Positions 2,512-6,749 of a stretch of DNA of 32,000 nucleotides are shown one piece after another. Location: assembly GCA_030149205.1 (NCBI GenBank), contig JASBSB010000007.1, positions 600,001-632,000 of the forward strand, written 5' to 3'. The notes under the pieces are model-generated. The model did no database searches, had not been told where the DNA came from, and saw only the letters and a list, made by a program, of their open reading frames with translations. Each line of letters opens with the position of its first letter. Position 1 is the stretch's first letter. The DNA comes from Candidatus Heimdallarchaeota archaeon (lineage in GTDB: Archaea; Asgardarchaeota; Heimdallarchaeia; Heimdallarchaeales; Kariarchaeaceae). Position numbers and translations under genes: made by a program.

Positions 2512-2574
2512 GAATCCTGTAGAATTTAAATAAAATCAAACTATTAATATAAACAAAATAAACTTAATAATTAT

Positions 2575-3462
2575 GTGAATGACATTATAGAAATCAATAT
2601 GGTAAATTTACGTTTTTTTTGGAATTATGTCGATGAAAGATACCTCATTCTTCACAAAAGAAAGCAAGGTCACCTTCCACCATGGACTGAGGATTCAATT
2701 TTGCGAAAATACAAATTCACCAATGTGTTTAGACGTGATGATCCGGGGACTCAATTTGTTCTTAACAAAATTATTCCCTTTTATACAGAGGATATACAAA
2801 ATCTCTTATTTAACATAATTCTTTATAGACTTTTTAACAAGATTGAAACTTACGAGCTTATAGGTGGTCAAAACCATAAAAAATTCGATAAGCTAGAAAT
2901 TAGGCATGCCCTTGAAGAAACAAGGCACCCTGTCTTTACGAATGCATTTATAGTTTCTCCTTATAATTTTTTGAAAGAAGAAGGTACTAAAATTGCTCGA
3001 GTTGTTAAGTTGTTGGAACTTATAGCCAAAGATATTCCTATTGTAACAGAAAAAATCATAAGGAACAGAGCGTCAGAAGTTACCTACTCTGTTCTCAAAT
3101 CCTTACCGGGAATAGGTGAATTTCTTGCATATCAAATTTGCGTGGACCTCGGCTATTATTCACATGAATTTTATGATGAAAACAAACATGTGGTTGCAGG
3201 AAAAGGGGCTTTAAATGGTCTTAACTTTCTATTCCCTAATTCATTTAAGCGTCATTCAACATATCTCATAAAATTTTTAGTTGATACACAATCTTATTGG
3301 CTTAGAAGACTTTCTCAATCTAATTCTCCCCTTATCAGAGACTATGGATATAAACCCTTGAATTTAATGGCAGTAGAAAACTGTCTCTGTGAGATTTCTA
3401 AGTATCTCAAGGCATTGTATGGATTGGGGCGTCCCCGTGTAAGGTATAAAATCAAGTATTAA
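2575..3462 (+). CDS. aGPT-Pplase1 / 5-hmdU DNA kinase helical-domain family protein (putative DNA base hypermodification amino acid:DNA transferase)
   Basis: Family-type motifs along the full length: FFWNYVDER, PPWTEDSILRKYKFTNVFRRDD, LFNIILYRLFNKIET, GIGEFLAYQICVDL, DENKHVVAGKGALNGL, ENCLCEISKY, GRPRVRY. Start is either GTG 2575 or ATG 2599. Confidence 0.85.
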   Translation: MNDIIEINMVNLRFFWNYVDERYLILHKRKQGHLPPWTEDSILRKYKFTNVFRRDDPGTQFVLNKIIPFYTEDIQNLLFNIILYRLFNKIETYELIGGQNHKKFDKLEIRHALEETRHPVFTNAFIVSPYNFLKEEGTKIARVVKLLELIAKDIPIVTEKIIRNRASEVTYSVLKSLPGIGEFLAYQICVDLGYYSHEFYDENKHVVAGKGALNGLNFLFPNSFKRHSTYLIKFLVDTQSYWLRRLSQSNSPLIRDYGYKPLNLMAVENCLCEISKYLKALYGLGRPRVRYKIKY

Positions 3463-3520: not shown

Positions 3521-5368
3521 ATGGAGCAGCTTCAGATCGTAAAGGATTTGATTGGGGCTGATAAACTTAGTGAGGCAGAGAAAAAGCTAAATGTAATCCA
3601 AGATCAGATTTCTGAGTTTGAATATATTAACCAAGTCTCAATCATTCAAGAAAAAAGAGGGTTAAATGATGACCTTTTCAAATCTGCTCTGAAGCTATAT
3701 GAACTTGCACAGCATTCTAAACTTGATGCTGAACTACTACAATCCTATATTCGGTTGATCTATGCCAATTGGAGGCTAGACAAACTTGAAGAAGCCCAGT
3801 CGTTTATAGATCTAGGGGTTAAATTACTAGATGGGGCAAATGATGATACATTACTTCCATTAGCTGGGGAACTCTATTACCTTGCGGGAGTAATTAATCA
3901 TGTTATGGGAGAGTCACTGGTTTTGATCAAAAGTTGGTTTGATAAATCTTTAGAGATTAGGCTTGAACTCGATGATGAACTGTTGTTATCATATACCTTA
4001 AATGCTCTTGCAATCGTTGAAGAGGACTTAGGGAATATTAGAGCAGCTATTTCCTATTATTTGAGTAGTCTGGAAATAAAAGAAAAGTATTCTAACAGCT
4101 TGGGACTTGCCCGGGGTTATTTTAATTTGGCTCAATTATATATCTCTACAGGAGACCTGAATAGAGCGAGAGAATTAGTTCCTAGGGTGGAGGAATTTTA
4201 TTCTAAAGTTGAGCATAAAACAGAGAGGCGGATGGTTCGCGAATTGAAGGCTCAAATTGCATATCAATCTGGTGACATTAAATCTGCTATTAATGAAAGA
4301 AAAACCAAAATCAATATTGCAGGTTTAAAACCTGATACGGATCAATATTTCGCTGAACTGCAAAAGTTGATAGATCCTTATATGTTGTTAGGACAGCGAT
4401 ATGACGCAGAAAAGATATTACAAGAGATAGCAAACTTCTACAATTCTGATGAGAGTAAGTTAACATATTTATTAGCATTACAATCCTATTATGCAAATCA
4501 TCCATCTACTCGTGAAAAGCTTAAATCGAAACCGATAGCCTACAAAATCTTAAACCATAAAGATTCTGGCAATTATTTGAAAATAAATACAATCTATACT
4601 ATTTTGACTGTAACTTTTTTGGAGATTTCCTTATTTTCAGAACCTGAGAAGATTCAAGAGGTGAGGGGACTTCTTAACAAATTGGAAGATTATTTTATTC
4701 AACCAACCATTCATGTTAAGGTAATAAGAGACTATATTTTAGGAAAAATAGCTTATTTTGACCAAAATTCACTTGAAATGCAATATAGATATAACAAAGC
4801 GCAAAAGTTAGCAGAAAAGAATGGACTGACTGCCCTTGCAACACAGATTTCGAAGGATTTCTACTCAAACACGGTTCATCTGTCTCCAGAGATGAACAAT
4901 GCATTTTCTGCCAACCATAACCAAACAAGGTACTTTGGTTCTGATCTTCAGTCTCTTAATTTAATCAGACCATTAAGGATATCTGAGCCACCTCGAGCAT
5001 TTTACATTATTGACTCATCTGGATTGTTAAGATACCAAAAAAATTTTAGCATGAATCTAAAAGTGAGTTCTTCTCTATTTTCAGCTTTCATAACGGCTAT
5101 CAAGCAATTCGGTGAGGAAGCATTAGAATCAGACCAGTTGAAGCGAATATGGATTGAAAATTACGTAATTGTATTCGATCAATGGGAGCAACTGACTCTT
5201 TGTCTTATCGTAGGGGGAAACTCATCAAACTTGGAGGAGAAAATCAGAAGATTTAAAGAAAAAATCGATAACGATCTGGAACTAAAAGAGTTGCTTATCA
5301 ACTCTAAATCAAAAATCATCTCTAATGACAAATTGGAGCTTCTCTCAGAATCAATTTTTATTCGCTAA
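3521..5368 (+). CDS. TPR-repeat protein with C-terminal longin-like domain
   Basis: TPR-like helices (AGELYYLAGVINH, LSYTLNALAIVEEDLGNIRAAISYYLSSLEIKE, LARGYFNLAQLYISTGDLNRA). The C-terminal ~125 aa (FYIIDSSGLLRY...LFSAFITAIKQFGEE...LKRIWIENYVIVF...LTLCLIV) follows the longin beta-beta-alpha-beta-beta-beta-alpha pattern. Confidence 0.75.
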   Translation: MEQLQIVKDLIGADKLSEAEKKLNVIQDQISEFEYINQVSIIQEKRGLNDDLFKSALKLYELAQHSKLDAELLQSYIRLIYANWRLDKLEEAQSFIDLGVKLLDGANDDTLLPLAGELYYLAGVINHVMGESLVLIKSWFDKSLEIRLELDDELLLSYTLNALAIVEEDLGNIRAAISYYLSSLEIKEKYSNSLGLARGYFNLAQLYISTGDLNRARELVPRVEEFYSKVEHKTERRMVRELKAQIAYQSGDIKSAINERKTKINIAGLKPDTDQYFAELQKLIDPYMLLGQRYDAEKILQEIANFYNSDESKLTYLLALQSYYANHPSTREKLKSKPIAYKILNHKDSGNYLKINTIYTILTVTFLEISLFSEPEKIQEVRGLLNKLEDYFIQPTIHVKVIRDYILGKIAYFDQNSLEMQYRYNKAQKLAEKNGLTALATQISKDFYSNTVHLSPEMNNAFSANHNQTRYFGSDLQSLNLIRPLRISEPPRAFYIIDSSGLLRYQKNFSMNLKVSSSLFSAFITAIKQFGEEALESDQLKRIWIENYVIVFDQWEQLTLCLIVGGNSSNLEEKIRRFKEKIDNDLELKELLINSKSKIISNDKLELLSESIFIR

Positions 5369-5420: not shown

Positions 5421-6749
5421 CTATTTATCATTAAATTTGTGCCAGAAGTGCTGTGCCTCTTGCCATCCGATATCCTTTCTATAATGAAGGTTATTTCCTT
5501 CTATAAAAATTTTTGATATTTCTCTGTAAATCTTTGATCTGAGATCGATGATGTCTTCTCCTTGTGCAACAAGGCTAAAGAGTCTCCCCCCATTAACAGT
5601 TGGTAAAGGGTCGAGTGCTATACCTCCACTGTAGAGAGAGACATTGTTTGCAACCTTTTCTAACCCATAGATCTGTTTGCCTTTGACATTTCTATAGTCT
5701 CCAGGATATCCTTTTGAAGCTCCTACAACACAGAGTCGTTTGATTTCGTCGTGAAACTTCTGTGATTGTGTAAGGTTTCCTTTAATACATCTCTCTATCA
5801 TCTCATAATATGATCCTAGAATACCCGGAATAACCACCTGACTTTCAGGGTCTCCCCACCTGGCATTGTATTCAATCGCTTTGATCTCCCCTGAGGGTAG
5901 AACTATCCCACTGAAGTATAATATCCCAACAAAAGGTTCTCCTTCATCTTTTAATCCCTTGATAACTGGTTGTACAAATACTTTCACAATTTCATCAATG
6001 CGGTTCTTAACTATATATGGGTGAGAGATTGACCCCATTCCCCCAGTTTGTTCACCCGTATCGAAATCATCTGCCAATTTAAAATCTTGAGCAGGTGGGA
6101 AAACGATGAAATTTTCACCATCAGATAATGCATAAACAGAGAATTCCTCTCCAATTAATCCTTCTTCAATAAGAAAGGTTTTTCCGGAATCTCCAAAGTT
6201 TTTCATTTTTCGAATATTTTGTTCTGCCTCTTTGAAGTTCGTTGATTTTAATGCCCCTTTTCCTGCAGCGAGTCCACTCGCTTTGACAAACAGAATTTTA
6301 TCCTTTTGATTACCGTAAGCTTCAGAAATATATTGAAGTGCGTCTTTTTCTGATGTGAATACCTCAAAATTTGGGTGTGGGATGTTATGTGTCTTCATAA
6401 ATCGTCTTGACCATGCCTTGTCCCACTCTATTCTTGCTGAGTTTCGCCTTGGACCAAATACCTTGTATCCATAGGTTTGTAACAGATCAACGGTTCCATG
6501 TGCCAGAGCATCATCCTGGGCGACGTCCACAAGGTCTGGTTTGTATTTTTCTGCAATTTTTAAAATGCTTTCGGGCTGTTTTAAATTAGAATTTTTCTCA
6601 ATTATTATAGTTTTATTTCGCTTAAAACCGATATAGTCATTCCCTGGGCTTATAATTATTGTGCCGACTTCAGGACTGTTTTCATATGCTTCTGAAAGTA
6701 CATGTTCTCTGGCTCCGCTCCCCACTATCAGTACAGTTTTTAAACTCAA
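5421..6749 (-). CDS. purD: phosphoribosylamine--glycine ligase
   Basis: VLIVGSGAREH, VKASGLAAGKG, EEGLIGEEFS, QTGGMG, EYNARWGDPESQ, VNGGRL. TTG start overlaps the purF stop by 4 nt. Confidence 0.97.
   Translation of the reverse strand: MSLKTVLIVGSGAREHVLSEAYENSPEVGTIIISPGNDYIGFKRNKTIIIEKNSNLKQPESILKIAEKYKPDLVDVAQDDALAHGTVDLLQTYGYKVFGPRRNSARIEWDKAWSRRFMKTHNIPHPNFEVFTSEKDALQYISEAYGNQKDKILFVKASGLAAGKGALKSTNFKEAEQNIRKMKNFGDSGKTFLIEEGLIGEEFSVYALSDGENFIVFPPAQDFKLADDFDTGEQTGGMGSISHPYIVKNRIDEIVKVFVQPVIKGLKDEGEPFVGILYFSGIVLPSGEIKAIEYNARWGDPESQVVIPGILGSYYEMIERCIKGNLTQSQKFHDEIKRLCVVGASKGYPGDYRNVKGKQIYGLEKVANNVSLYSGGIALDPLPTVNGGRLFSLVAQGEDIIDLRSKIYREISKIFIEGNNLHYRKDIGWQEAQHFWHKFNDK

Follow-up and report, generated by a model that had tools for sequence, protein, structure and literature searches.

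The aGPT-Pplase proteins, a family reportedly named in a 2013 paper by Iyer et al., include a clade 1 (Pfam PF18723) and a clade 2 (PF18724, ADDT). Here we describe a clade-1 gene on the forward strand (2575-3462) of a 32,000-nucleotide stretch of a Candidatus Heimdallarchaeota archaeon genome (contig JASBSB010000007.1, positions 600,001 to 632,000; the whole stretch is hereafter called the window). The gene is a real, intact-looking and ordinary-looking member of PF18723 in an unusual, partner-less setting.

All amino-acid and amine transferases proven so far belong to clade 2, namely M6 gp51, ViI gp247, PaMx11 gp46 and PhiW-14 gp109 (PMC8989533), joined by a diaminopropane enzyme in 2026. 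In M6 lysates, gp54 and gp51 were sufficient for reconstitution with gp55 excluded, and SP10 gp186 was still active as a kinase when its Pplase-type C-terminal half was missing (PMC8989533). M6 gp55 is the second Pplase-type product of that phage, and we infer that it is the clade-1 one. The preliminary description of the window had treated amino-acid or amine transfer as established for the family. Because every proven transferase is a clade-2 enzyme, this activity does not carry over to clade 1, and the window protein gave no match to PF18724 at E values up to 1.

In phages, the clade-1 gene typically adjoins a P-loop 5-hydroxymethyldeoxyuridine (5-hmdU) DNA kinase and a dUMP hydroxymethylase, as in PaMx11, where gp50 (clade 1) lies between gp49 (kinase) and gp51 (thymidylate synthase, TS); in some phages it is found with glucosyltransferases plus a TS homologue. 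The latter arrangement was seen in LuckyBarnes (L024 840-4855) and PhiJL001 (L025 3562-7850), with no annotated clade-2 gene in the stretch shown, so that clade 1 may have a role in pathways besides amino-acid transfer. A PF18723 protein is also part of the validated E. coli anti-phage system DS-4 ("NTTI"), together with a TS homologue, a dNMP kinase, a TIR protein and an NMAD protein (DefensePredictor, PMC13092281). The existence of cellular homologues has been noted before (PMC5889632); our literature search found nothing on Asgard hypermodification or on a "DNA base hypermodification protein".

Compared with these systems, the window protein has the same Pfam family and size as the phage clade-1 proteins PaMx11 gp50 and the C-terminal half of SP10 gp186; it is 29% identical to PaMx11 gp50 over the full length (E 7e-25) and has in common with the phage proteins a C-terminal E-x-x-x-C-E...K-Y...G-R/K-P motif. 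However, it falls in a separate tree clade, and the archaeal genome has neither the kinase nor the hydroxymethylase that adjoin the phage copies. The DS-4 protein carries the same C-terminal CE...K...G.RP motif and resembles the ViI-like tree group, as judged by its N-terminal sequence and not by tree placement. Whereas DS-4 is a five-gene operon, its partner genes were not found beside the window gene, with TIR and NMAD not searched for genome-wide.

A clade-1 gene without its usual partners

The longest open reading frame at the locus is uninterrupted, with a GTG start and 295 codons plus stop. Its product matched PF18723 (HMUDK_hel, formerly aGPT-Pplase clade 1) at 212.8 bits (E 8.4e-63), against a curated cut-off of 25 bits, over profile positions 5-274 of 281. 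The family assignment and the full length given in the preliminary description were thus borne out, and both parts of the C-terminal motif it had named were found, ENCLCEISKY at residues 268-277 and GRPR at residues 285-288. The protein also matched phrog_2396 of PHROGs, a family of unknown function (E 1.9e-54), while NCBIfam and PADLOC searches returned zero matches, and sequence searches of the PDB with the single sequence or with a 61-sequence profile returned nothing meaningful. The protein is basic (pI 9.5; 43 K/R vs 29 D/E). The gene start is more likely the ATG at 2599 than the GTG at 2575; we took 2599-3462 as the gene because the recorded 287-aa protein starts there and homologues begin at the equivalent position. 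The two candidate extents are as follows.

2575..3462, plus strand: longest open reading frame encoding the PF18723 protein (P0001), GTG start, 295 aa
2599..3462, plus strand: probable true coding sequence (P0002, 287 aa), from the in-frame ATG at which the recorded protein starts, with homologue starts equivalent

Partner enzymes were sought across the whole host genome (3.3 Mb), and their absence is to be read against its completeness of 93.5%. A six-frame search found exactly one PF18723 gene, the window copy. No ThyA-family hydroxymethylase (PF00303), 5-hmdU DNA kinase (PF18748), clade-2 transferase (PF18724) or TET/JBP dioxygenase (PF12851) was detected in the genome, which encodes one ThyX and one Tmk, both housekeeping. 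Genome-wide tblastn searches with phage kinases, four phage TS homologues and gp46, and a search with a hidden Markov model (HMM) derived from the kinase domains of 46 fused relatives, revealed no partner and no Tmk paralogue; the sole match was the housekeeping Tmk. The absence of a kinase leans on these tblastn and HMM searches, because PF18748 under-detects the kinase family: the proven kinase PaMx11 gp49 (W01 39220-39627) scores 17 bits, below the cut-off. The same profile also misses a Sulfuricaulis kinase homologue (G206) that tblastn finds. A weak P-loop match on C2 was considered as a partner kinase and rejected, being FtsY/SRP54. The preliminary description had reported neither partners nor viral genes within the window, which holds, and had proposed, as one of two readings, a dispersed host hypermodification pathway, which is not supported because nothing in the genome makes or phosphorylates 5-hmdU by known routes. 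These results indicate that the gene is a true orphan and that the known thymidine-hypermodification pathway cannot run in this genome.

A tree of 111 PF18723 domain sequences resolved three large groups: kinase-linked or kinase-fused bacterial proteins, ViI-like phage proteins, and 37 stand-alone proteins of about 290 aa each. The last group (clade C) contains the window protein and has an approximate likelihood ratio (SH-aLRT) support of 92. Its members come from Peribacteria (candidate phyla radiation, CPR), Nanoarchaeota, Heimdallarchaeota, a giant-virus-like contig, a 1.27-Mb uncultured bacterium and large contigs, as well as from the transcriptomes of the foraminifera Nonionella stella and Bolivina argentea. 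The sister lineage of the window protein includes its closest relative, P0031 (292 aa), on a contig (L027 714-5365) whose content is giant-virus-like, with a Pox_A32-type packaging ATPase, TFIIS and an I-HmuI-like protein.

Within 6 kb of the subclade loci, a kinase was found at 0/17, a clade-2 gene at 0/17 and a TS-family gene at 1/17. The corresponding counts were higher at other bacterial loci (TS 5/9, kinase 3/9) and at viral loci (TS 40/80). The TS-family gene at the sole subclade locus that has one (L020 7982-8686) was called at 156 aa although tblastn matches reach about 230 residues, and it may be truncated or frameshifted. In five other carrier genomes, PF18748 was found in 0/5 and a canonical ThyA in 1/5, about 325 kb from the gene. 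Neighbours were not conserved across the subclade loci. The partner-less state is thus a property of the whole subclade and not of the window gene alone, and a subclade of this kind has apparently not been described before.

Fold and putative active site

An AlphaFold2 model built from the 61-sequence alignment was all-helical and of high confidence (pLDDT 92.1, pTM 0.90). Exhaustive structural comparison over 48,161 chains with VIA-align placed three groups at the top: the DUF2419 queuine-salvage enzyme 7u07 (Z 10.0, root-mean-square deviation (rmsd) 5.8), the apo form of the PaMx11 glycinyltransferase gp46 (PUGT; 8z2m, Z 10.0, rmsd 4.1, 217 residues), which acts on 5-phosphomethyldeoxyuridine (5-PmdU), and the helix-hairpin-helix (HhH) DNA glycosylases (Z 8-9.7). 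The 25 rows that scored Z 6 or higher were without exception the PaMx11 transferase, DUF2419 or DNA glycosylases, and the next score was 4.3. In a second comparison, the top rank went to the PUGT-DNA complex 8z2n (Z 10.3, rmsd 3.9, 211 aligned residues). Foldseek against the PDB gave weak rows only (best E 0.26). The HhH-glycosylase fold named in the preliminary description is therefore upheld by the model, which predicts the glycosylase-type fold of the phage 5-PmdU transferases.

The three groups differ from the window protein in distinct ways. The HhH-GPD glycosylases (EndoIII/Nth, AlkA, Mag1, Ogg, MutY) have the two-lobed helical fold with an HhH hairpin in common with it (Z 8-10 over both comparisons), and an LPGIG hairpin is present in the window protein, with the near-invariant E202 lying 21 residues beyond; however, none of the glycosylase Pfam families matched, and the window signature is a Cys-Glu pair instead of the glycosylase Asp/Lys. 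QNG1/DUF2419 is alike in fold (Z 9.1-10.0, with 7u5a and 7ulc at Z 9.9), but its rmsd is 5.7-5.8, its sequence is unmatched and its substrate is queuosine 5'-monophosphate, a purine-type nucleotide. The clade-2 enzymes (PUGT, M6 gp51 and ViI gp247) offer the best structural match, with an alignable E-[T/N]-x-x-C motif, stacking aromatic and N-terminal Asp, but they show no significant sequence match, the glycine-binding Lys150 of PUGT corresponds to Gln187 in the window protein, and their substrate 5-PmdU cannot be made in the host genome by known enzymes.

The motifs on which the comparison draws are located as follows.

2680..2742, plus strand: N-terminal family motif PWT.D..L.KYKFTNVFR..D, residues 36-56, including invariant R53 and D56, from the family alignment
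3103..3147, plus strand: helix-hairpin-helix element LPGIGEFLAYQICVD, residues 177-191, with F183 and D191 invariant, from the alignments
3196..3207, plus strand: AGKG loop, residues 208-211, with K210, from the clade alignments
3376..3405, plus strand: putative catalytic motif ENCLCEISKY, residues 268-277, from the alignment to gp46
3427..3438, plus strand: conserved basic GRPR motif, residues 285-288, with R286 invariant, from the family alignment; it could possibly contact phosphate or DNA

In PaMx11 gp46, a pocket receives the flipped thymine, on which Trp146 stacks; the nucleophile is Cys247, and a divalent metal is bound by Glu243 and Thr244 (PMC11472151). The cysteine equivalent to C247 is essential in M6 gp51 and ViI gp247 (PMC8989533). 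Both a profile-sequence alignment by hhalign and a MAFFT alignment put E268-N269-C-L-C272 of the window protein over E243-T244-I-L-C247 of gp46, and paired F183 with W146, Q187 with K150, and D56 with D24, a ligand-pocket residue of gp46. The window protein therefore appears to keep counterparts of the metal ligands (E268, N269), the thiol nucleophile (C272) and the stacking aromatic (F183), and the putative catalytic residues, whose loss would have spoken against the preliminary description, are retained. The hhalign score is not significant, so the residue mapping to gp46 is an assignment that draws its support from the fold match.

Conservation within PF18723 is strong at the same positions. 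Of the columns that are invariant in the family alignment of 61 sequences, the window protein retains 16/16, which follows from how the list was drawn up; the family-invariant residues that it carries include R22, R53, D56, N88, T92, F183, Q187, D191, Y194, N269, C272, K276, Y277 and R286, and the near-invariant E273 is present as well. The aligned active-site positions are 97-100% conserved across every PF18723 clade.

Neighbourhood and distribution in the host lineage

The neighbours agree with the preliminary description, which had named a protease and a TPR-longin gene. Upstream lies a subtilisin-type protease (1-2511) with its D/H/S motifs visible in the sequence; downstream are a TPR protein (3521-5368) and then purD (5421-6749) and purF, a purine-biosynthesis cluster. 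The TPR assignment is solid (TPR_12, E 5.8e-16), whereas the longin part is weak, with PF19036 at E 0.072 only, below the cut-off. The intergenic stretch in front of the gene is listed here.

2512..2598, plus strand: AT-rich intergenic stretch, a possible archaeal promoter region

The same-genus homologues of the TPR protein are only about 25% identical to it. The protease contains an FN3-like segment and, at its C-terminal end, a module of about 110 aa in three near-identical copies, each of which opens with TFTG.VSS and closes with SVTYPV/DVTVPV. Assembly of this repeat region is less certain, because the contigs of the source run fragment at 1059-2340 and the depth there is raised (116-181 vs about 80).

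Signs of a mobile element were absent around the gene: no tRNA was found in the window, no repeats were seen flanking the gene, and the composition was not anomalous (gene GC 0.34 vs 0.35-0.39 for the neighbours). The Asgard-type host assumed in the preliminary description is consistent with a full-length, eukaryote-like actin encoded in the genome (445 bits) and with the window PurD, whose best named relative is that of a Heimdallarchaeota metagenome-assembled genome (MAG). After this single Heimdallarchaeota match, the closest named PurD relatives are from DPANN archaea, all at 52-55% identity.

Within the phylum, a PF18723 gene was found in 2/201 sampled genomes, the host and one of the same genus. 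The same-genus copy is cut by a contig end, lies in a different context and is not the nearest relative of the window protein. Two other same-genus genomes are without the gene; orthologues in them share only about 52% identity, and gene order on the purD side is rearranged. In the Heimdallarchaeota MAG B11T1B5 (L042 3741-3998), an 85-codon C-terminal remnant was found that covers the LNLMAMENCFCEISKY...GRPR part only, and the frame upstream of it is full of stops. Related strains at about 96-97% identity from two other studies still carry the gene. These observations suggest that the gene is accessory in this lineage, gained and lost, and not a core function.

Possible functions of the stand-alone protein

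The reading that we favour, and that we hold only tentatively, is that the window protein is a stand-alone enzyme which acts on a flipped-out C5-substituted pyrimidine in DNA without a dedicated kinase. The protein would bind DNA, a C5-substituted pyrimidine would be flipped out, most plausibly a uracil or thymine derivative such as 5-hydroxymethyluracil, and Cys272 would attack C6 to change or remove the C5 substituent, in a reaction for which a dedicated kinase would not be needed. The substrate would be supplied by base damage or by incoming foreign (viral) DNA and not by host hypermodification, because the genome cannot make or phosphorylate 5-hmdU by known routes. It is a doubtful but conceivable extension that the subclade represents a new kinase-independent DNA pyrimidine-C5 enzyme, which would, for example, directly reverse or convert 5-hydroxymethyluracil or a similar C5 adduct in DNA by a thiol-dependent reaction, or would write a base modification that has gone unrecognised in these lineages.

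Several observations weigh against this favoured reading. Demonstrated activity is lacking for all clade-1 enzymes, and the proposed chemistry would be extrapolated from clade 2 through a residue mapping that rests on a weak alignment (hhalign E 0.055) plus the fold match. The Z score of about 10 to PUGT is tied with those of ordinary glycosylases and of the nucleotide-acting QNG1. The near-universal GPG loop reads G209-K210-G211 in the window protein, whereas every clade has AGPG or PGPG there, with the proline in 92% or more of its rows. Kinase-linked and partner-less clades do not differ in their active-site columns, and the substrate may therefore still be a phosphorylated base; this genome encodes no known means of making one, a statement that carries with it the low sensitivity of PF18748 for the kinase. 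Finally, the 17 differences that were classified, out of those listed for related strains, comprised 10 non-synonymous and 7 synonymous changes, which shows no strong constraint and resembles the split in the fast-evolving TPR neighbour gene; this evidence is weak, because the contigs are of low depth.

The QNG1 match also raises the possibility, which we consider unlikely, that the protein works on free nucleotides, in salvage or sanitation of modified pyrimidine nucleotides or nucleosides, in the manner of QNG1/DUF2419. QNG1 stands level at the top of the structural matches, fusions in the wider PF18723 family are most often with nucleotide-metabolism domains (Thymidylate_kin PF02223; MazG PF03819 plus PF18722), and the carriers of the subclade include many CPR and DPANN organisms with small genomes. 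However, the QNG1 alignment is poorer than that of the DNA enzyme PUGT (rmsd 5.7-5.8 vs 3.9-4.1), the HhH hairpin and the basic GRPR tail suit DNA binding, the phage kinases of the hypermodification system act on DNA and not on nucleotides (PMC8989533), and no nucleotide-metabolism neighbour is conserved around the subclade members.

We assign rather low odds to a stand-alone antiviral or counter-defence factor directed against hydroxymethylated or hypermodified pyrimidines in viral DNA, which was the second proposal of the preliminary description. Membership of a PF18723 protein in DS-4 and the predicted defensive role of aGPT-Pplase domains (PMC13092281) would fit this role, as would a patchy distribution that looks horizontally transferred, a Peribacteria copy adjoining DNA methylases and a Z1 protein, and the position of the closest relative on a giant-virus-like contig. 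Yet the window gene has no PADLOC match and sits in a purine-biosynthesis setting with no adjoining defence genes, the TS, kinase, TIR and NMAD partners that DS-4 requires are missing here within the scope searched, and several subclade copies lie among housekeeping genes.

The strain differences, the K210 substitution at the conserved proline and a related-strain variant that alters the near-invariant G97 could be read as marks of a functionless or decaying gene, acquired horizontally, neutral and heading for loss. The C-terminal remnant in the other Heimdallarchaeota MAG and the rarity of the gene in the phylum point the same way. We regard such decay as improbable: the gene has an uninterrupted, full-length frame, none of the invariant family residues has been lost, the composition is host-like and the strains from two other studies retain the gene.

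A dispersed endogenous hypermodification pathway, with partners unlinked and unrelated to those of phages, would fit catalytic-type residues that match those of the kinase-linked clades and hence the same phosphorylated substrate, but is very improbable given that the host genome is without a ThyA-family gene, TET/JBP, PF18748, a Tmk paralogue or a clade-2 enzyme, that the other carrier genomes are likewise, and that no neighbour is conserved over the 17 subclade loci.

Were the decaying-transfer explanation true, the finding would be an ordinary one. Phages, defence islands and scattered cellular genomes encode clade-1 aGPT-Pplase proteins in abundance, and none has an assigned reaction. The window gene is a member of this known family in a partner-less configuration that typifies its whole subclade. 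With its putative active site complete and every link to the hydroxymethylase and the kinase lost, the subclade offers a clean test case for the domain alone, bearing on whether a phosphorylated base is needed and on whether the C5 substituent is repaired, erased or written. The presence of the gene in an Asgard archaeon, with giant-virus-like and foraminiferal relatives, adds a modest point in favour of gene exchange around the archaeal-eukaryote boundary.

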